A stretch of DNA of 64,000 nt from Octopus vulgaris (taxonomy: Eukaryota): assembly GCA_951406725.2 (NCBI GenBank), contig OX597826.1, positions 10,044,001-10,108,000 of the forward strand. Direction: 5' to 3'. Positions within the stretch are counted from its first letter, which is position 1, and the number at the start of each line of letters is the position of its first letter. Shown piece by piece: positions 9,850 to 54,520 of this stretch. A program made the translations under genes and the position numbers. Below the pieces are notes generated by a model, which saw nothing but the letters and a program-made list of their open reading frames with translations, was not told the origin of the DNA and searched no databases.

Positions 9850-11343
9850 TATAGATTATAAGGTTTATTTGACCTACGTAACCTGTCCAAGCTTGTATTT
9901 AGGTGATTCTTCTCATTGTTTAGAAATTCATTCATGTTGTTTGCATTCAGAGGCCTTCTAGCTATCTCTCTCAGTCAGTGTAGGCAAATGTATAATGTTC
10001 CTCAACAGTTCGTGTCTGAGCAAGTTGTCATAAACTTCTTGGAGCATTTCTATAATGAAAAGATTTTATTCTTGGTAAAGTGAAAATGATAACAAGGCAT
10101 CTAGAATCGGCATGGCTTCATGGCCATTCTGTTCTATTGTTTCAGTACATATAACCATACATACTGAAAAAAGGTAAATGAAAATATTAGTGTATTATGT
10201 CATGTGACTAAGATTAGAGGCAGAGCTTTTGATGCGTGCGTTTAGATGCAGATGTACACACACACACACACACATACACACATGCACATGCATATTCACA
10301 TATGAAAAGTTCCTGGTTTTGGGTAAAAGAAAATATAGGGGGACCAGGTAATTACGGTTTTATTCAACATAATCCCTTTTCAGATTCACACACTTATTGC
10401 AGTGGTCCTTCAGTTTTTCTGAACTCTGCAAAAGAACTCTGATGATGGTTGGGCCTCCAGCCAGGCCTTTTGCAATACCCTTAAAACCAGAAACCTGTAA
10501 GAAAGAGCTGGCCATCACTTGTGAACAGGTATGACTTAGTAGCCTGTACCATGATTTCATCAATTATTTTTGGGGCCTGTGTTGTCATGAGCAGACATAG
10601 TCACTCTTTTGACTGTCTCAGTCTTTGACCCAGCAGCAAGTCCAGGATGTGCCAGCTTGAAGGGGAGAGAGGGAGAGAGAGATAGAGAGAGAGAGAAAGA
10701 GAGAGAGAGAGTGAGAGAGAGCTGTACCAGGGCTTGTCTGTGACTCATTTTCAGGTGAATAAACTGGAACAATGTGAAATGAAGTACCTTGCTCAAGGAC
10801 ACAGTGAAACACTCAGTCCAGAAATTGAACCCATGACGGACACAAATATGTACACAGACACACACGTGGGAGAGAGAGAGAAAGGGGCTCATACATCTCT
10901 TTTGATTCCTTGCCCCTACCACCTCTATAATACCCTCTTATCTATCAGTTATCAGTATCAATCTTATCAGTCTTTTACACTTTCCCCTCATACACACACA
11001 CACACAAGTCCAGACATGGCTATATGGTTGAGAAGGTTGCTGTTCCCAACCAAATAATTTCAGGCCCCACTACTTGGCAGTTTAAGCAACTTCGATTACC
11101 CTAGGTCAATCAAAGTCTTTTGATTGGATTTGGTGGATGGGAACTCAAAGAAGTCTGATGCATGCTTGGTTCCCAAATGTGTTGTCTTGGACCCAGTTTC
11201 ACTGTGCTGCACCTTGGACAGTGGACAAGTAACTTCTATTATAGCCCCAGGGGTCATCAAAACTTTGTGAGTGGATTTAACAACAGATGGAAACTGAAAG
11301 AATCCTATTGTGTATATATATTGTGTGTGTGTGTATCTATTAC

Positions 11344-11400
<57 letters not shown>

Positions 11401-11497
11401 AATCCAAACATGAACAAGCAAGAAAAAAACAACAGCGCGAAGACGTGGAATAAGTACAGTGTTATTGGATGCTCAGGAAAGGAAAGAAAAGAAAGAG

Positions 11498-11534
11498 AAT
11501 TTCATGTTTCGAGCAGAACTCTTCATCAGAAATA
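11498..11534 (-). ncRNA. Degenerate minimal hammerhead motif
   Basis: attt-CTGATGA-agagttctgctc-GAAAC-atg-aaat, within a ~200 bp insert between (TA)n runs. Cleavage triplet is not canonical. Confidence 0.5.
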
Positions 11535-11590
11535 TAGAAAAAGTTCAAAGAAGGGAAGACGGAGAAAAAAATCGCCAACGATGCACAGGT

Positions 11591-11627
<37 letters not shown>

Positions 11628-11629
<2 letters not shown>

Positions 11630-12054
11630 CAATGATAAATCTCAGAGCGAGTTATAAACAGTAGCGGTAACACATCTTGATGCATATTTGCCATTTGAAT
11701 ATGGCTAACCCCTAAGGGTGGATGCTACTGTATCGCTCTGAGATTTATCATTGTTTGATTTCACTTTTTCAATATCAGTGTCAAATCGACACTGGAAAAA
11801 GTATATGTATTTGTGAAGGGATCTGACTTCTCATCGACAACCATGATTGTCACATGCTGATGAAAGGTAAACACCTTGAAACTCTGGTACGTGTGTATCA
11901 TGTGTTGAAGACAGGGAGGATAACTCCCCTTCACAAATACTGAGAGGACACAGATAGTGTGTCTATAGCCAGCTGGAGGAGATATCTTCCTGGGGCTACA
12001 AACTACAGTAGCATCCACCCTTATGGGTTAGCCATATTCAAATGGCAAATATGC

Positions 12055-12058
<4 letters not shown>
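11628..12058 (+). mobile_element. TA-inserted hammerhead element with interleaved inverted repeats
   Basis: Inverted pairs 11628-11650/11733-11755 and 11678-11732/12004-12058; hammerhead at 11851. Confidence 0.6.
11851..11895 (+). ncRNA. Minimal hammerhead ribozyme
   Basis: cacatg-CTGATGA-aaggt-aaac-acctt-GAAA-C-tctg-G-TA-cgtgtg. Stem I has one G:U pair; stem II is 5 bp. Confidence 0.75.
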
Positions 12059-12086
<28 letters not shown>

Positions 12087-12090
<4 letters not shown>

Positions 12091-12718
12091 TTAATTAATA
12101 AGGGTGAGAGAATTAGATACTAATTAATAGTATATTTATTCAACACCAAGTGGCCTAGTGCTACGAGAAACCTGGATTATTATAATATTTTATAACATAT
12201 TATAATATTTTTACAAAATAAATATAAGAGAGTGGTCACTATATTGCTCACTCTAGCACCAGTTAATCCAAAAGGTTTCAACCACGAAAATACATGTTTC
12301 CCATGAAAGCCAGTACGACTGTTAGCTCACACGGACAGGGCAAATAAAAAATAACAAAAATACAGATTATTTTGGGACAATTGTTTCGCTATTAATGAAT
12401 TAAATGTAATATTACTTACAAAAAAATCCATTTGTAGCTCGTCAGCCAAGACTATCTGGATGAAATCCACTCAATCACACGCCAGATTTTACCATAACGA
12501 TAAATACGCGTGTGGTTCAATTGATTACATCCGACGTTATAATTCAAATGCCCCAACCAACAGCGCGCCAAACTTTCACGGAAAACAAATACAGCATTTA
12601 GAAATAAATGCAGCATAATTATAATTAATTAATAAGGGTGAGAGAATTAGATACTAATTAATAGTATATTTATTCAACACCAAGTGGCCTAGTGCTACGA
12701 GAAACCTGGATTATTATA
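12087..12718 (-). mobile_element. Non-autonomous Penelope-like/retrozyme-like element with 98 bp terminal direct repeats
   Basis: 12087-12184 is identical to 12621-12718. Internal hammerhead, (TA)n flanks, no ORF. Confidence 0.65.
12372..12449 (-). ncRNA. Minimal type I hammerhead ribozyme (intact core)
   Basis: ttgg-CTGACGA-gcta[loop]tagc-GAAA-C-AATT-G-TC-ccaa. Palindromic ACAATTGT stem III, GUC triplet. Confidence 0.8.
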
Positions 12719-14230
12719 TATATGGCTGTAAATGAGCATGATCAGCATACAAGTGATGTTCATTTCCAGTCTTCCACAAAAAACATGCCTGGTCAAGGAG
12801 AAATATTATTTTGCTTGCAAAGCCAGTGAGTATTGGTGTGAGGAAGGACATCCAGCTGTTGGAAATTTGTCTCAATGAATTTCTGTCTAACCCATGCAAG
12901 CATGGAAAAGTGGATGTTAAAATGATGATGATGTGACAATGATAAGTGTGTGTGTGTGTGTGTATGAGAGAGAGAAGGAGGGAGAGAGGGAAGGAGAGCG
13001 AGAGATTGTGTGTGTCAACATCATACAGTCAGTGACATTTTGTTTCCAGTCTTCTGTGAAGACATGTCCAGCCAGGATGAAATGATATCATGTTGCTTGG
13101 AAACAAGTAAGGGTTGACAATAAGAAAGGCATCGGACCATAGAAAATAAATTAAACTCCAATGAATTGTGTGGGATTCATGCAAGCATAGGAAAATGGAT
13201 GTTAAAATGATGAAAATGAAGATGAGGGTATATATAGGATGGCCTTCTGAGTGTATCCATGTTTCCATCTACCAAATCCACTCACAAGGGTTGGCCCTGG
13301 ACTATGGTGGATGACTGTTGCCTTAGTTGCTGTGGATTGGATATACAATAGGGTGTTGAAAAGTTCCTGGTTTTAAGGGTACCGCAAAATACATGGTTGG
13401 TGGCCCAACCTTTCGAGTTCTTTTACAGGGTTTAAAGAAACTGAAGGACCACTGCAATAAGTGTGTGAATCTGAGAGGGGGAATATATGTTGAATAGAAT
13501 CATGATTAACTGATCCTCCTGTATTTTCTTTCACCTAAAGGCAGAAACTAAAGTCATTTGACTGTGGTCATGCCAGAGCACCGCCTTTAGTCGAGCAAAT
13601 CAACCCCAGGACTTATTCTTTGTAAGTCTAGTACTTATTCTATCGGTCTCTTTTGCCGAACCACTAAGTTACAGGGATGTAAACACACCAGCATCGGTTA
13701 TCAAGCGATGTTGTGGGGCAAACACAGACACACAAACATATACACATACACACATATATATATACATATATACGACAGGCTTCTTTCAGTTTCTGTCCAC
13801 CAAATCCACCCACAAGGCTTTGGTCAGCCCGAGGCTTATAGTAGAAGACACATGCCCAAGGTGCCACGCAGTGGGAATGAACCCGGAACCATGTGGTTGG
13901 TAAGCAAGCTACTTACCACACAGCCACTCTTGCGCATGTATATATGTATGTTTGTATGTATGTGTACATATGTATAAGTGTGAAGACCAGTCCCTCTAGT
14001 GGTGAAAAGCACTTGTGGTGGTGTCACATGAAAGTACCTGTGCAGTGTCGTATAGAAGCACGGACCATACCCTGTAAAGTGGTTGGTGTTAGGAAGGGTG
14101 TCCAGGAGGAGCATGCAAAATCAGACTGGAATCTGGTGTAGTTCCCCAGCTTGCCAGCTCTGGTCAAACTGTCCAACCCATGCCAGTATGGACAATGTAC
14201 ATTAAATGATGTTGATAATGATGTGTGTAT

Positions 14231-14927: not shown

Positions 14928-15114
14928 ATATGATAAGAAGTCAATGAAATACTTACAAGCACCCATGAAAAAAAAGCAGAAGCGAGAGTCATGTGTACAC
15001 ATAAGTACCCCAAATATATCTAAATATGAATTCCGTAGCAAGCCTTACTACGGAATTCATATTTAGATATATTTGAGGAAATTTTTTGAAAAAATTTTAT
15101 CCTATATTAGAAGT

Positions 15115-15177
<63 letters not shown>

Positions 15178-15307
15178 TTCAGCAAAAATTTAGATTCAAA
15201 TGAATATGGTACTTAATTTAGATGCACCAGAATTCTGTATGGTGTTATCCATAAAAATCTGTGGGGTGATTATAATCAAAATAAGCAACAAGAATGACTC
15301 CGGTAAT

Positions 15308-15384
15308 TTGGTACGATCGTTTCGTACTACATCATTTTATTAAGTACTACAACAGATTTAAGATGCTGAGTACTCATCAGCCAA
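15308..15384 (-). ncRNA. Minimal type I hammerhead ribozyme (intact core)
   Basis: ttgg-CTGATGA-gtact[loop]agtac-GAAA-C-GATC-G-TA-ccaa. Palindrome ACGATCGT, GUA triplet. Confidence 0.8.
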
Positions 15385-15550
15385 TTATAGAGGTTTTCCA
15401 TTAATACAAAAATTTTCAAATCAAGTGGCAACATTATAGAGAAGGTAGATATATAGACAAAGATGTGGATTTAAATTTTAAGAACATATGATGTAGTGGA
15501 CAAGGTATAGATAATGGTTATTACATATTTTTCTTTTATGAGAGTAAATT

Positions 15551-15657
15551 TGGCCTACAGCTGTTTCCTCTAATCATTCTAGGTATGTTACTGATAGGTT
15601 TACTCAGTTGGTCTATTGATCACCTGAGAAAAATGAATGCTGCTTTCGTCAGAGCCA
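15551..15657 (-). ncRNA. Second hammerhead-like motif in the 15.2-15.9 kb element
   Basis: tggct-CTGACGA...GAAA-C-AGCT-G-TA-ggcca. Palindrome ACAGCTGT; stem II poorly paired. Confidence 0.5.
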
Positions 15658-15923
15658 TTTCTGGTTGTAACAAAGCAAACCGTTATTTATACTTTGTTTT
15701 ATCTATCACTCTGTGTAAAAACCAGTTTGACTGGAGCTTAATCATGGATCTACAATATAGAAACTGTGATGAACCATAACCTTGGACCCTGGCATAAAAA
15801 TACTTGAAGTTCTTCAGTAATCTAAACATAACTGTTAGCCTGGTTTGCCAACAGAGAGCTTATGAAGTGTTTTGCCCGGATTGATAATCCCTCACTATTA
15901 GCTCTGTTATATATGTATATATA

Positions 15924-26043: not shown

Positions 26044-26150
26044 AAAAATATGGAACGCTTCATGAATTTGCATGTCATCCTTGCGCTGTGGCCATGCTAA
26101 TATTCTCTGTATCATTCCAATTTTAGAATATGTACTGCCGTAGCTAGTAC
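26044..26150 (-). pseudogene. U6: U6 snRNA retro-pseudogene, full length (107 nt)
   Basis: Minus strand reads GTACTAGCTACGGCAGTACATATTCTAAAATTGGAATGATACAGAGAATATTAGCATGGCCACAGCGCAAGGATGACATGCAAATTCATGAAGCGTTCCATATTTTT. ACAGAGA box, AGC triad and oligo-T are present. Three CpG-type decays and internal stem-loop substitutions; upstream flank is a MITE, not a PSE/TATA promoter. Confidence 0.93.
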
Positions 26151-36378: not shown

Positions 36379-36582
36379 TAATGTGACAGTCCTGTAAGGG
36401 AATTACACCACCGCTGTTTAGCCCTAGGAAGCATTGACGCTTCCTGTCGGCCTTGACACATTTCCTGTGTCCTTCGTATATTTACGAAGGACACAGGAAA
36501 TGTGTCAAGGCCGACAGGAAGCGTCGATGCTTCCTAGGGCTAAACAGCGGTGGTGTAATTCCCTTACAGGACTGTCATGTTA
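36379..36582. repeat. Near-perfect palindrome / fold-back MITE
   Basis: Arms 36384-36478 and 36483-36577 (95 bp, 1 mismatch), 4 nt loop, TA at both outer ends. Confidence 0.85.
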
Positions 36583-37061: not shown

Positions 37062-37114
<53 letters not shown>

Positions 37115-37147
37115 ATCAAAATAAGCAACAAGAATGACTCTGGTAAT

Positions 37148-37233
37148 TTGGTACGATCGTTTCGTACTACATCATTTTATTAAATGTTGTAAGTATTACA
37201 ACAGATTTAAGATGCTGAGTACTCATCAGCCAA
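37148..37233 (-). ncRNA. Minimal hammerhead ribozyme, second copy of the 15308 family
   Basis: Core and stems are identical to 15308-15384; differences fall in the stem II loop. Lies in a ~240 bp copy (37112-37350) directly after a (TA)n run. Confidence 0.8.
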
Positions 37234-38179
37234 TTATAGAGGTTTTCCATTAATACAAAAATTTTCAAATCAAGTGGCAACATTATAGAGAAGGTAGATA
37301 TACAGATAAAGATGTGGATTTAAATTTTAAGAACATAGGAGGTAGTGAAGTCCTTCCATATGTATGTATGTATCATTGAACACTAAACCCTGCTTGCGAA
37401 GACCTGTTGAGGCAAGTGAAATCAAAATCAAATTCAATAACTTGCATCTGTGCTAGTGGAGCGCTAAGAGCACCAACCGAGCATGATTGTTGCCAGAGCA
37501 GCTGACTGACTTCCGTGCCAGTGGGACGTAAAAAGCACCATTCAAGCGTGATCATTACCAGCATCGCCTTACTGGCACTTGTGCAGGTGGCATGTGAAAA
37601 AAACATTTGAGCGGGGTCGTTGCCAGTGCCACTGAACTAGCTCCTGTGCAGGTGGCACGTAAAACACCATTTGAGCATGGCTGTTGCCAGTACCGCCTGA
37701 CTGACCCTCGAGCCGGCGGCACGTAAAAAACACCCACTACACTCTCAGAGTGGTTGGCATTAGGAAGGGCATCCAGCTGCACGTAAAAAACACCCACTAC
37801 ACTCTCAGAGTGGTTGGCATTAGGAAGGGCATCCAGCTGTAGAAACACTGCCAGATCAGACTGGAATCTGGTGTTGCCCCTCAGCTTACCAGCCCTGGTC
37901 AAACCATCCAACCCCTGCCAACATGAACAACAGATGAGGATGATGATGATGATATATCATCATCATCGTTTAATCGTCCAACCCATGCCAGCATGGAAAG
38001 CGGATGTTAAACGATGATGACGATGATGTAGTTTTATTGATTTTAGTCTTTGAACTGCAGTCATATTGGGGTTCTGTCTTCAAGCATTTACTTGATTTCT
38101 ACTACTCATTCCAGTCACCTACTTATTTTATCAATTAGTATGTGTGTGTTTGTGTGTGTACCATTTAGTGATACTTGTT

Positions 38180-41815: not shown

Positions 41816-44242
41816 TGTATGCATATATGACGGACATCTTTCAGTTTCTGCCTATGAAATCCACTTACAAGGTTTTGGTTGGCCCAGGGTTACAGTTGAA
41901 GTCACTTGTCCAAGGTGTGTCACAATGAGATTGAACTCTAAACCATGTGGTTAGGAAGTAAACTTCTTAACCACATACCTATGCCTGTGACCTTAATCTA
42001 AAAGTTCATGGGTATGGAACTTATATTTGTTTTGATTTGAAGGCTTAAACATTTTTCTGTTTCCAAATTTTATCAGTGGACAGTTTACAATTAGCATGCA
42101 GACCAAATTTCACATGTATACAAAGGGTTCTCCGGCCCCTGTTGTAGAAGTTCCCTCATAAACAAGAAAGTTCACATCTTGTGTGTTGGATGTAGATTGC
42201 TTGCGCAATAAATAATGCTGAATTCAGAGACAGTAATATTAGTTTCAATTTTTGGCACAACGCCAGCAACTTTGGAGGAAGGGGTAAGTCAATTACATTG
42301 ACCCCAGTGCTCAACTGGTCCTTATTTTATTGACCCTGAAAGGATGAAAGGCAAAGTTGACCTTGGTGGAATTTGAACAGTCATGGTTGTGTGTAAGAAG
42401 CTTGCTTCCCAACCACATGATTCCAGGTTCAGTCTCACTGCATGGCACCTTGGGCAAATGTCTTCTACTATAGCCTCGGGTCAGCCAAAGCTTGGTGAGT
42501 GGATTTGGTAGACAGAACCTGAAAGAAGCCCCATCATGTGTATATATGTGTTTGTGTGTCTGCATTTGTCCCCACATCACCACTTGACAACTGGTGTTGG
42601 TGTGTTTACATCCCTGTAACTTAGTGGTTCAGCAAAAGAGACCAATAGGATTAGTACTAGGCTTAAAAAATAAATCCTGGGGTTGATTTGTTCGACTAAC
42701 ACCCTTCAAGGCAATGCTCCAGCATGGCTGCAGTGAAATGACTGAAAGAAATAAAGGTATAAAAAGAATGGACGGAATACTGCTAAGCATGTTGCCCGGT
42801 ATAATAATGGTTCTGGCAGCTTGCTGTCTTTTCAGAGACATTAATATTATAATTTTCAACAAGTTGGCAAACCGACAGAATCATTACTGTGCTGGACGAA
42901 ATGCTTAGTGGCATTTTGTTTGTCTTTATGTTCTGAGTTCAAATTCCACTGAGGTTGACACAGCTTTTCATCCTCTCGGGGGTTGATAAAATAAGTACCA
43001 GTTAATCACTGGGGTTGATGTAATCGTCTTACCCCTCTCCCGAAATTACTGGCCTTTTAGCAAAATTTGAAACCAATATAATGCTCAGCTTTTAACTCTT
43101 TCCCTGTGTTTCACATGTGTTACACACAATATATTTCTCTGGCTTCCATGCATCATCATACAATATATCTAATTTTTTTCAATTACCAAAGTATCTTGGG
43201 GACTTATGAAATGAAAGTGTAGCATATCTGATATCCTCACTGTTTGAGAAACACAATAAGAATGATCTCGTTTGAGATTACGGCCATCTTTGGCTGGTTT
43301 GACCCTGTTGTGTCCACTGATCTGATTGGTTGGCATCTAGCGCGGTTTGTCTCCCTACTTATTTCGTGCCAGAGTATAAAGGCAACCAATCACGGCCTTT
43401 GGATAAGGCCTGCTTGATTTGAGCCATCTAAACCCCTTAAATAGGCTAGATTTTCATTATTCTTCGTCTTTCGACTCCAGACCTTTTTAAGGCCTAGTCA
43501 CTGACCACAGAGCTACTCAGCCATGTTCCAGTTACAGCGACAGACGACCAGTCAGCCAGCTCTGCTATTGCTCCAGCTATGAAGACGCTATTATATACCA
43601 GCAACAAACAGAACATTTTCTATCTCCGCCGCCGTCATCACCATCATCGTACTCCAACTTTACGCCATCTCCACCATTCGTCGCCATTACCACTGCCAAC
43701 TTCAAATATGTACACACCAACTCCTTACGTATGGCCGTATAATCCTACAAAAGCTTTATATTAGTCAGAAAAAATAAAACAAGTGCTAATTAAAGTCGAT
43801 AACAAATATTGACACTTAAGATAAACTTACAAAAATGCTTTGGAAATGCAAACGATTAATGTCACTTTTCTTTTTCATGTAGCTCACATATAAAATAGAA
43901 CTTATATGTTGCAAGAAAACATAGACAGCAGAGTCTGTTAGTAAGTTTGGTCTTTTGATTTAAAGTTCAGTGTGAGCTAGGATGAAACTTTAACCCATTT
44001 GGACAAACCCACCTGAGATTGATTGCCCCTGGTTCAATGATGCTAAATTCTTTATTTAGATTGATCTGAATTAAAACTGTTTATCAAAACTTCAAGCTAC
44101 TTTATGTTCCAATACCAGCTTAATTTTAACAAAACTGATTTACAAAATTATTCATGATTTTGAAATTAATTTAAATAGAAGTAGTATATTTCAACAGAAA
44201 CATAGTAACAAAATAGTTAACTGGGCCACATTAAACTATTTC

Positions 44243-44685
44243 AAACTTAAAATCTTCAAAGCCATAGTCGAACCAGTTCTACTATATGGCTCAGAAACCT
44301 GGACATTATCAAAGAAGCTCGCAAGGTGGTTGGATGGAACTTACACTCACCTCCTTATGAGAGCTCAAAATCTCTCGTGGAAGTGTCATCCAACCAAAGT
44401 GCAAATATATGGGAAACTACTACCTGTATCATCTCTTGTGAAAGGTAGAAGAGTCCAGTTTGCTGGACATTGTTGTAGAGCTGAAAAAGAGGTAATTTTT
44501 ACTCTTCTCCTCTGGAAGCCATCTGCTCACGATACCAGAGGGCGCACACTCTCCTACCCTGATGTAATCTCCAGGGATACAGGCATCCAGCAACAGGACC
44601 TCCGTAATGCTATGGTGGCATGTGAAGTCTGGCGTAGCATGGTAAATTCCATTGTCTCGACCACGGTCGAACAATGACGATGATG
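44243..44685 (+). mobile_element. RTE-clade LINE 3' fragment (different family)
   Basis: KLKIFKAIVEPVLLYGSETWTL...FAGHC...WRSMV, stop at 44675-44677, (GAT)n tail. Confidence 0.85.
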
Positions 44686-49659: not shown

Positions 49660-50281
49660 GTGAGTGGGTGTTGAAAGGTTCCTGTCTTTGGGTAAAAGAA
49701 AATACAGGAAGATCAGTTACTCTTTTACTTGTTTCAGTCATTTTGACTGTGGCCATGCTGGAGCACCGCCTTTAGTCGACCAAATCGACCCTGGGACTTA
49801 TTCTTTGTAAGCCCAGTACTTATTCTATCGGTCTCTTTTGCCGAACTGCTAAGTAACAGGGACATAAATACACCAGCATCGGTTGTCAAGCAATGCTAGG
49901 GGGACAAACACAGACACACAAACACACACACACACACACATATATACATATATACGACAGGCTTCTTTCAGTTTCCGTCTACCAAATCCACTCACAAGGC
50001 ATTGGTCGGCCCGGGGCCATAGCAGAAGACACTTGCCCAAGATGCCACGCAGTGGGACTGAACCCGGAACCATGTGGTTGATTAGCAAGCTACTTACCAC
50101 ACAGCCACTCCTGCGCCTGTTAATTATGATTTTATTCAACATATTTCCCTCTTAGGTTTACACACTTATTGCAGCGGCCCTTCAGTTTTTCGAAGCCCTG
50201 TAAAGGAATTCAGAAGGTTGAGCCTGCAGCCAGGTCTTTCAAGATACCCTAAAACCAGGAACTTTTCAGCACTCCCTCATA
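49660..50281. mobile_element. Mariner-like MITE interrupted by a SINE
   Basis: Imperfect TIRs gagtgggtgttgaaaggttcctg / caggaacttttcagcactccctc. Related copies at about 10282-10495 and 13345-13549. Confidence 0.6.
49720..50117 (-). mobile_element. tRNA-derived SINE family B (CORE-like, internal microsatellite)
   Basis: GGCGCAGGAGTGGCTGTGTGGTAAG head, GGTTCAGTCCC box, (a/c)ttgggcaagtg motif. Other copies near 2675-3220, 4990-5210, 13550-13935 and 42380-42765. Confidence 0.85.
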
Positions 50282-52069: not shown

Positions 52070-54124
52070 GTAAGTACTTCACTGTAATTGTAAGAAATTG
52101 CTTTGCTGTTTAATTACCATCTTTTCCTTTTTTATCTTTTACTTGTTTGAGTCATTGGATTGCGGCCTTGCTGAGGCAGTACCTCAAGGGGTTTCAGTGG
52201 AACAAATGTACCCAAGTGCTTTTTTTTAAAGTCTGGTACTTATTCTATCATTGTCTTTTGCTAAACTGCTGAGTTATGGGGACATAAAGCTACACCAGTT
52301 GAGCAGTGCAATGGGGGTAATAATTACAAAGACACACAAACACATATACATGCAGTGACTGCAAAGACCCGACAAATAACGTGAGTTCATGGCTGTTTCC
52401 TGCACCAGCTTCACGTAGCAGCCCCAGCCCATCCAAAGTACCTTGGTTCTCAGGATGGCCTGCTGTGTTTACCTTGGATCATAGGGCGACCTGCTGTGCT
52501 TGAGGAGGCCTATTGAGCCAAGTACCTCAACATCAAAATAAAATCAAATGGAAATTGTACTTGTGATACCCGTGCACGTAAAAAGCACCATCCGAACATG
52601 GCCGATGCCATCGCTGCCTTGACTGGCTTCCTTGCCAGTGGCACATGAAAAGCACCAACCGATTGTGGCTGTTGCCAGCCTCCCTGGTGGTACGTAAAAA
52701 GCACCCACTACACTCATGGAGTGGTTGGCGTTAAGAAGGGCATCCAGCTGTAGAAACACTGCCAGATCAGACTGGAGCCTGGTGCAGCCTCCGGGCTTCC
52801 CAGACCCCGGTCAAACCGTCCGACCCATGCAAGCATAGAAAACGGATGTTAAACGATGATGATGATGTGTGTGTTTCTAGCTATCTATCTGTCTATGATG
52901 AACTTCCACACAACCTCTGTTGCCAAATTTACTCACAAGGCATTGGTTGGCCTGGAGTTGTAGTAGAAGACACTTGCCCAAGGTGCTGCACAGTGGGACT
53001 GGACCCAAAACCAAGTGGTTGCAAAGTACGTTACTGAAACACGCAACCATGCCTGCACCTGGTTTATTATTCAGTTTTATTTACACATCAACCAAACTTT
53101 GGTACCTTTGTTTGTATGGTTGTCTTTTAATCCAGTACAGACCTTTGGTCAACATCTTTCCAACAGTGAAGATCCTGCTTTTTCTTGTGTGCAATACCCT
53201 GGGGGTGGGAAGGAAGTGGGGGAGACATGTATGCTATTCTTTGCTGGATGGATGGCCATGTAAAAGCTCCCCTGCTAGCTTGATTTATTTGAGTTATTTC
53301 AATAACTCAAATGTGAATTCTTTTGATGTCAACCCGTCTGAGACTACCCCTGGCTCTATGATACAATCTTCCTGCTTTGAAGTGATCTAAAAACCTTCCA
53401 TCAGTGAGCGGGGCCGGTGCGCATTGATGCCGTCGAGAGGTAGGCCCCGAAACGGCGCGCATTCTCTCCTGATGACCCCATTCACTTGCTGGCTTCCGGT
53501 ATATGGAGCTTTTGACTGGTAGCACTTGCATGTGCAAGTTGTTTGCAAGACATGTTCCAGATATTTTTCTACTAAAAGCACAAGGCCTGGAATTTGTTGA
53601 TCACATCGACCCCAGTGCGTAACTGGTACTTAATTTATTGACCCCGAAAGGATGAAAGGTGAAGTCAAATTCGGCAGAATTTGAACTCAGAACAGACAGA
53701 CAAAATACTGCTAAGCATTCTACCTGCTCGCTGCCTCACATGGTAACAAAAATATGTTAACCAAAAGGGTTATGGCACATTTTATTGTTTCGTTTGCCTC
53801 GTAAGGCAGTATACTGGCAGTCATTAACACATCACACAAAACGTTTTGTGGCATTTCGTTCAGCCCTTTATGTTCTAAGTTAATTCCACAGAGGTTAACT
53901 TTGCCTTTTTATCCTTTCAGCATTAATAAAATAAATACCGGTTAAACACTGGGGTTGATGTAATCAACTTACTGACTCTCTTTAAATCACTGGCCCTATG
54001 CCAAAATTTGAAAGAATTATTCTGTTTATTTCCGTTTACTTGACTGGCAACCTGTGTTCTACAACTAATTCACAGTGATTGAAAAAGCATCCTTCTTTAA
54101 AAATACTTGCTTCAACTCTATATT

Positions 54125-54520
54125 ACTCTTTTGCTTGTTTCAGTCATTTGACTGCGGCCATGCTGGAGCACCGCCTTTCGTCGAGCAAATCGACCCTGGG
54201 ACTTATTCTTTGTAAGCCCAGTACTTATTCTATCGGTCTCTTTTGCCGAACTGCTAAGTGACGGGGACGTAAACACACCAGCATCGGTTGTCAAGCAATG
54301 CTAGGGGGTCAAACACAGACACACAAACACACACACACATACATATATATATACATATATACGACAGGCTTCTTTCAGTTTCCGTCTACCAAATCCACCC
54401 ACAAGGCATTGGTCGGCCCGGGGCTATAGCAGAAGACACTTGCCCAAGGTGCCACGCAGTGGGACTGAACCCGGAACCATGTGGTTGGTTAGCAAGCTAC
54501 TTACCACACAGCTACTCCTA
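54125..54520 (-). mobile_element. SINE family B
   Basis: Near-identical to 49720-50117. Confidence 0.85.

Follow-up and report, generated by a model that had tools for sequence, protein, structure and literature searches.

A probable retrozyme-like hammerhead element inserted beside a TA microsatellite in Octopus vulgaris

Introduction

Animal non-LTR retrozymes are described as non-coding, self-paired elements with a G+C content below 50% and a type I hammerhead, and the accessible parts of their descriptions give them no LTR, primer-binding site (PBS) or polypurine tract (PMC7229834; bioRxiv 10.64898/2026.07.22.740005). They consist of at least two tandem units, each with a hammerhead, and the circles tested measure 170-400 nt (PMC7229834). 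A 2020 study held Penelope-like elements (PLEs) to be strong candidates for moving retrozymes and proposed circles as the templates (PMC7229834). In its available text, a 2026 preprint ties retrozymes to pseudo-LTRs by phylogeny, treats dispersed monomers as retrozyme derivatives, gives family lengths of 51-972 bp and allows for unequal crossover in the growth of arrays, and it calls the mechanism unresolved (bioRxiv 10.64898/2026.07.22.740005).

In the pattern reported for PLEs, a full copy is preceded by a 5'-truncated one, and an inverted copy and a tail belong to the pattern as well (PMC8557442). Pseudo-LTR PLEs combine this upstream truncated copy with a microsatellite target, no clear target duplication and a hammerhead, as far as the accessible text goes (Craig et al. 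2021, PMC8557442; Frangieh et al. 2024, PMC11167929). A TA bias has been reported for the Naiad PLEs in the parts of the literature available, and a microsatellite bias was proposed for Neptune. The purified anole PLE protein cuts AT-rich DNA and initiates cDNA internally, at two sites; its substrate in this 2024 biochemistry is uncut RNA, and the ribozyme is dispensable in vitro (PMC11167929). A short palindromic helix III and action as a dimer are on record for animal motifs (PMC4209133; PMC6765202), and helix II measures 4 bp in the canonical motif and 7-8 bp in the minimal PLE motifs (PMC4209133). Penelope elements and Rfam type I hammerheads have already been noted in cephalopod genomes, according to the sections available (PMC8967140; PMC6962438). 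We found no account of the element described here, or of cephalopod retrozymes, in the literature, although the supplements of PMC7229834, of the 2026 preprint and of PMC4209133 may list related motifs.

Here we analyze a hammerhead-bearing insertion in a 64,000-nt stretch of Octopus vulgaris DNA (GCA_951406725.2, contig OX597826.1, 10,044,001 to 10,108,000), the whole of which is called the window; positions are those of the window.

Results

Organization of the Element

The element spans positions 12087-12718 (632 bases) and is non-coding. It consists of a 534-base unit and an exact 98-base partial copy, as the preliminary description had claimed: 12087-12184 and 12621-12718 agree at 98 of 98 positions, their starts are 534 bases apart, and the exact match extends beyond neither edge. 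On the minus strand, which carries the ribozyme, the partial copy comes first (12621-12718; 5'-truncated, pseudo-LTR-like, equal to the final 98 nt of the unit and without a ribozyme), followed by the complete unit (12087-12620; 32.6% G+C and highly self-paired) and a (TA)13 tract. The locus holds 1.18 units and one hammerhead, which sits in the unique part, with 178 nt between its end and the repeated 98 nt downstream (12363 versus 12184). The unit join (12087/12620) lies inside a 21-nt AU-only run without extra bases, and a hairpin (12611-12594) is predicted at the very beginning of the unit.

The longest ATG-led frame of the unit, on both strands and read as a circle, has 54 codons. The RT and GIY-YIG frame that an autonomous PLE requires is absent from the element, no coding remnant was found on the 5' side of the unit, and no protein relative was found for an 87-aa antisense frame. 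A Pfam scan of 142 window frames (136 of the 265 complex frames, from 333 of at least 60 aa, and six short ones from the elements) gave two weak matches below the cut-off, neither in the hammerhead elements, and no PLE coding remnant. The reading as an LTR or TRIM element was rejected, since TG..CA ends, a PBS, a polypurine tract and a type III ribozyme in the repeats are all missing; the ends of the 98-bp repeat are AT-only on both strands, and the inner flanks are neither PBS-like nor purine tracts. A bacterial promoter scan of the sequence, which is inapplicable to a eukaryote, stayed at chance level, B-box-like motifs matched on both strands and were uninformative, and a scan for tRNA genes found none.

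When the 632 bp were used in blastn and nhmmer searches, no second copy was found within the 64-kb window; the next nhmmer matches were an internal inverted match and two hammerheads of the family called B below, at E 1.1 and 5.2. Phage and plasmid searches with the element gave no match. A hammerhead pattern built from the motifs of the window had three matches in the window, which are not independent of it, and none in bacterial and archaeal genomes.

The Hammerhead Motif

A structural descriptor finds a type I hammerhead motif at 12363-12458 of the minus strand: CUGANGA, GAAA and UH stand around three helices, and helix I is open-ended. Helix I (12458-12446 with 12375-12363) contains an internal loop. 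The core comprises CUGACGA (12445-12439) and GAAA (12387-12384), between which helix II occupies 51 nt (12388-12438) as 4 bp, an internal loop, 8 bp, a second internal loop and a 5-bp apical hairpin, its first four pairs having probabilities of 0.97-1.0. Helix III has two pairs (A12384-U12377 and C12383-G12378) that enclose a palindromic loop, and the region as a whole (12377-12384) forms a perfect palindrome of 8 nt, through which two copies could pair (self-duplex -6.4 kcal/mol). The cleavage triplet GUC ends at C12376, in agreement with the cut predicted beforehand between 12376 and 12375 of the minus strand.

The descriptor found four hammerhead motifs in the 64-kb window, all of which passed a stricter stem rule, and 30 block shuffles gave no strict and two loose matches. 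Rfam Hammerhead_1 aligns to 12370-12451 over the full model at 27.4 bits, versus a gathering score of 34, and the E value of 3.7e-5 applies only to a search narrowed to 141 bases picked after the fact; the whole-window and 1-kb Rfam scans did not report a Hammerhead_1 match in the element. In the alignment, 39 nt of helix II appear as an insertion in loop 2. This long helix II suggests that standard cut-offs undercount hammerheads in the octopus lineage.

The hammerhead had also been described as intact. Its sequence core is indeed complete, but the single motif is predicted to be blocked: core and cleavage site mis-pair with each other at probabilities of 0.95-1.0, and adopting the active fold would cost 5.6 kcal/mol. 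The Rfam consensus offers the same mis-pairing, so the blocked fold is no proof of inactivity. The predicted active dimer (-49.2) is level with two blocked monomers, a blocked dimer reaches -53.0, and action as a dimer is possible in these energy models. Since the ribozyme lies outside the 98-bp repeat, the copy has one hammerhead and could not release a circle alone, and any circle of ~534 nt would have to derive from a dimeric source locus elsewhere. No circles are predicted to arise from the copy itself.

Folding of the Unit

The 534-nt unit folds with a z of -8.15, and none of 100 shuffles was equally stable; across runs, 63-66% of its bases are paired and z ranges from -6.9 to -8.2. The ribozyme strand folds better than the opposite strand (z -7.4 versus -4.85, with 20 versus 8 G-U pairs), which points, in these predictions, to selection on the RNA. 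Sixty-four strand-windows as long as the unit, sampled across the 64 kb, had a median z of -0.8 (a rough z, with five shuffles each); only two fell below -7, and these were the two strands of a single DNA palindrome. Of the folding signals sampled, the strongest comes from a long, near-perfect DNA palindrome at ~36380-36580.

Within the unit, a long basal stem (12587-12535 with 12356-12295, minus strand) holds the ribozyme and a side arm (12532-12458). It has 46 predicted pairs, 11 of them G-U, and a z of -7.6 on the minus and -5.8 on the plus strand. The 3'-terminal 98 nt of the unit (12087-12184, minus strand) are joined to the unique part (12285-12281 and 12262-12254) by predicted helices of 5 and 9 pairs at a probability of 0.7-0.8. 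Shuffles equalled this link in 13/300 and 3/300 cases in two tests and in 181/300 in a duplex test, so that the predicted tie between the two parts is of moderate strength. Closing the unit into a circle does not improve the predicted fold (-149.5 kcal/mol, versus -154.6 for the linear form), and folding therefore lends a circle no support.

The Insertion Site

The (TA)13 tract at 12060-12085, the likely target, stands at the 3' junction, 2 nt from the end of the repeat. At the 5' junction (12715-12723) a TATA common to element and flank is followed by a short TA remnant, and the 5' end of the element falls within a predicted AU hairpin. No clear target duplication accompanies this TA microsatellite. 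Further out lie two parts of an older dispersed repeat, both on the plus strand: the left half (11270-11346) matches six intact kin in their upstream part, and the right half (12722-12943) has 67-74% identity to kin elsewhere in the window. All six kin are unbroken at the position where the cluster stands. The flanks are thus halves of one older repeat, and the cluster between them is inserted. This cluster (11347-12718) contains three hammerhead-type elements parted by TA tracts, here called D and C and followed by the 12087-12718 element.

All four element 3' ends in the window that are fixed by sequence (12087, 37113, 12058 and 11629) lie at most 3 nt from a (TA)6+ tract, and positions this close to such a tract make up 0.83% of the window. 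The ends of D and of B1, the first copy of family B, were excluded from this count because they had been placed by means of the tract itself.

The identity of the repeats had been read as the mark of a recent insertion. There are no differences in 98 positions, but this bounds the divergence only to less than about 3%; judged by sequence, the element is probably young relative to the older repeat that the cluster splits. The order of decay in the cluster (D decayed, C with one mismatch in 77, the 12087-12718 element with none in 98) fits successive insertion, as far as sequence divergence can be read in this way.

Neighboring Hammerhead Elements

Element C (11629-12058, plus strand; a descriptor match with its core at 11857) comprises a forward copy of 326 nt and, next to it, an inverted arm. 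In the arm's own reading direction, the last 55 nt of the unit (54/55 identical) come first, followed by 27 new nt and the first 22 nt of the unit (22/22). The 27-nt bridge is absent from the forward copy of C, the implied unit is 353 nt long, and the two TA-joined 3' ends are ~49 nt apart. The order of end, bridge and start needs a tandem or circular 353-nt template, and at the level of sequence C is arguably better evidence for such a template than the 12087-12718 element. C has a fold z of -7.7 on its ribozyme strand, and the stabilization of a circle by the bridge does not go beyond shuffles (16/100). As C is of a different family, it counts as an analogy only.

Element D (11396-11592, minus strand; relaxed descriptor, core at 11529) is TA-flanked and carries a decayed hammerhead of the minimal type, with an extra base between the core and helix II. 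It has no folding signal (z 0.0), and no second copy of it was found within the window. The Rfam search recognized neither the motif of C nor that of D.

Family B has two copies on the minus strand, at 15176-15905 and 37113-37347 (cores 15380 and 37229), which are 93.6% alike over 235 nt. Both sit on TA tracts and have a helix II of 50-59 nt and a palindromic helix III. The first copy, B1, scores 20.3 bits with Rfam, and its fold (z -1.6) is no better than that of shuffles. The 3' ends of the two copies lie 136 and 39 nt beyond the cut, so that the ends of this family are not fixed. Kinship of the 12087-12718 element with family B was not supported, since the helix II alignment was equalled in 106/2000 shuffles and the flanks in 113/300 and 208/300. 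A consensus fold of three sequences did not recover the hammerhead, and none of 15 pairs showed a compensatory change. A 71-bp palindrome (15008-15078, 93% self-complementary) lies near the TA tract of one family B copy.

Discussion

Comparison with Known Systems

The element is a real, well-formed insertion of a kind already known; its unit is larger and its helix II longer than usual, and the cluster in which it stands has junctions of the Penelope type on non-coding ribozyme units. It shares with the animal non-LTR retrozymes the non-coding, self-paired and G+C-poor sequence, the type I hammerhead and the lack of LTR, PBS and polypurine tract set out in their accessible descriptions, and its 534-nt unit is within the range of family lengths given by the 2026 preprint. 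The unit exceeds the circles tested so far, however, and the locus has 1.18 units with one ribozyme where retrozymes have tandem units with one each; its helix II of 51 nt contrasts with the 4 bp of their canonical motif. By analogy, the element may act as the monomers of animal non-LTR retrozymes do, but we do not file it as an active retrozyme.

The likeness to pseudo-LTR PLEs lies in the truncated upstream copy, the microsatellite target, the lack of a clear target duplication and the hammerhead, and neighbor C shares with PLEs the inverted arm and the two 3' ends. Unlike these PLEs, the element has no RT/GIY-YIG frame, and its 98-bp repeat is too short to hold the ribozyme. The element is inserted like a PLE, yet it does not strictly belong to either retrozymes or PLEs: its ribozyme is not tandem, lies outside the repeat and is not accompanied by an ORF. 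Its short helix III, palindromic loop and low predicted activity as a monomer recall the dimer-acting hammerheads of animal PLEs and repeats, as these are described in the available text (Cervera and de la Pena 2014, PMC4209133; Perreault et al. 2011, PMC3088659), but it lacks the extra base before helix II that neighbor D has, and its helix II greatly exceeds the 7-8 bp of the minimal PLE motifs (PMC4209133). The non-autonomous, MRC1-type elements of Chlamys are likewise non-coding and form pseudo-LTRs, for which they were mistaken for LTR elements; Chlamys elements differ in being green-algal and, in the portions of the account available, mostly without canonical hammerheads (PMC8557442). 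Plant LTR retrozymes are also non-coding, with direct terminal repeats and a hammerhead, but the accessible description gives them type III ribozymes inside LTRs of 300-400 bp, a PBS, a polypurine tract and 4-bp duplications, none of which the element has (PMC5680766).

Origin of the Insertion

We favor, at a probability of about 0.7, a retrozyme-like, non-autonomous element that was placed in one insertion by a Penelope-type RT/endonuclease supplied in trans, from a continuous template longer than one unit. The preliminary description had seen one unit and a partial second copy, as from copying more than once in the manner of Penelope pseudo-LTRs or retrozymes, and this reading finds support in the layout, the neighbors and the TA target, and in a sequence that has a type I hammerhead with a palindromic helix III but neither an ORF nor LTR hallmarks. 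Because the insert contains the cleavage site uninterrupted, a linear monomer cut by the ribozyme cannot have been the template. An uncut tandem transcript is somewhat likelier as the template than a circle, at about 60:40.

Under the favored reading, a source locus elsewhere with at least two units would be transcribed, and paired hammerheads would cut as dimers, some monomers perhaps being ligated into circles. A Penelope-type protein, presumably a helper encoded elsewhere, would nick the (TA)n tract and start cDNA synthesis within the RNA, at a site made up of A and U only (12087). The layout shows one whole unit followed, across the unit join, by 98 further bases; the enzyme would have copied the first through an uncut ribozyme and then continued. 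Copying would halt in the AU hairpin, and the new end would be joined to the target by the TATA that both are seen to share.

A single copy is expected to have the identical layout whether it was made from a circle, from an uncut tandem transcript or by a template jump between two linear RNAs. For the last of these, in which the enzyme finishes a linear 534-nt RNA with fixed ends and restarts at the 3' end of a second one, no tandem or circle is needed; the hairpin at the start of the unit might cap a real 5' end, and the linear fold matches or exceeds the circular one in stability. We nevertheless consider such a jump improbable, because C continues across the join of its own unit by way of a bridge absent from its forward copy, the 3' ends of family B vary, and the join of the 12087-12718 element lies in an AU-only run without extra bases. 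It is still less probable that the layout arose from a local DNA duplication or an assembly fault that created the 98-bp repeat in an otherwise plain monomer, and we give this the smallest chance of all: the repeats are 100% identical and PLE tandems are said to trouble short-read assemblies (PMC8557442, accessible text), but the partial copy occupies exactly the place that the PLE model assigns to it, with the 5' end of the unit on one side and the continuation of the older repeat on the other, and it shows the TATA microhomology.

Two further explanations are, in our estimate, equally remote, each clearly below the template jump and somewhat above the duplication or fault. In one, the 98 bp are a long target-site duplication, a 436-bp hammerhead element having entered an earlier 98-bp fragment already present on the TA tract. 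Duplications longer than 4 bp are mentioned for animal retrozymes (PMC7229834), PLEs tend to insert into or beside earlier copies (PMC6765202), both as far as these texts are accessible, and one of the three pairing tests failed to link the 98 nt to the rest. The 98 bp, however, lie outside the split older repeat and occur nowhere else in the window, and the predicted helices, favored by the other two tests, tie them to the unique part. In the other, the element is a terminal non-coding piece of an autonomous PLE, namely two 5'-truncated copies in tandem, the longer of which was cut off at 534 nt. PLEs are mostly 5'-truncated with a hammerhead near one end, in the portion of PMC8557442 available, and B1, with its z of -1.6, may be such a piece; against this, the 534 nt fold as one unit, with the 5' part pairing with the 3' part around the ribozyme, and the 5' side of the unit holds no coding remnant.

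A bolder extension of the favored reading takes the 12087-12718 element and C as relics of RNA circles that ribozymes had made and a Penelope-type enzyme then copied, going round the 534-nt circle 1.18 times in the one case and across the join of a 353-nt circle in the other. We hold this tentatively and think it rather unlikely. The enzyme would start and stop wherever an AU-rich patch pairs with the TA target. If this were true, circularly permuted insertions would form a family in the genome, with a dimer-gated hammerhead whose long helix II lets it escape the standard Rfam cut-offs, and the junctions would show directly that the retrozymes of animals are mobilized as circles by Penelope machinery. 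The single locus by itself is an ordinary product of a known class. Its readable junctions on a TA target make the movement of retrozymes testable through the ends of copies, which may be fixed, clustered or circularly permuted.

Other Features of the Window

The window is repeat-rich eukaryotic DNA with many microsatellites, dispersed repeat families and one U6 copy, and its repeats seem similar to those of octopus genomes. The latter is a full-length U6 snRNA match at 26044-26150 on the minus strand (98.2 bits), with several differences from the consensus, and is either a gene or a retrocopy. A 200-codon open frame at 44075-44674 (plus strand), without a Pfam match, resembles what we take to be the C-terminal part of a LINE reverse transcriptase. 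A common dispersed repeat is represented by two 95%-identical copies (398 nt) at 49717-50112 and 54123-54519.
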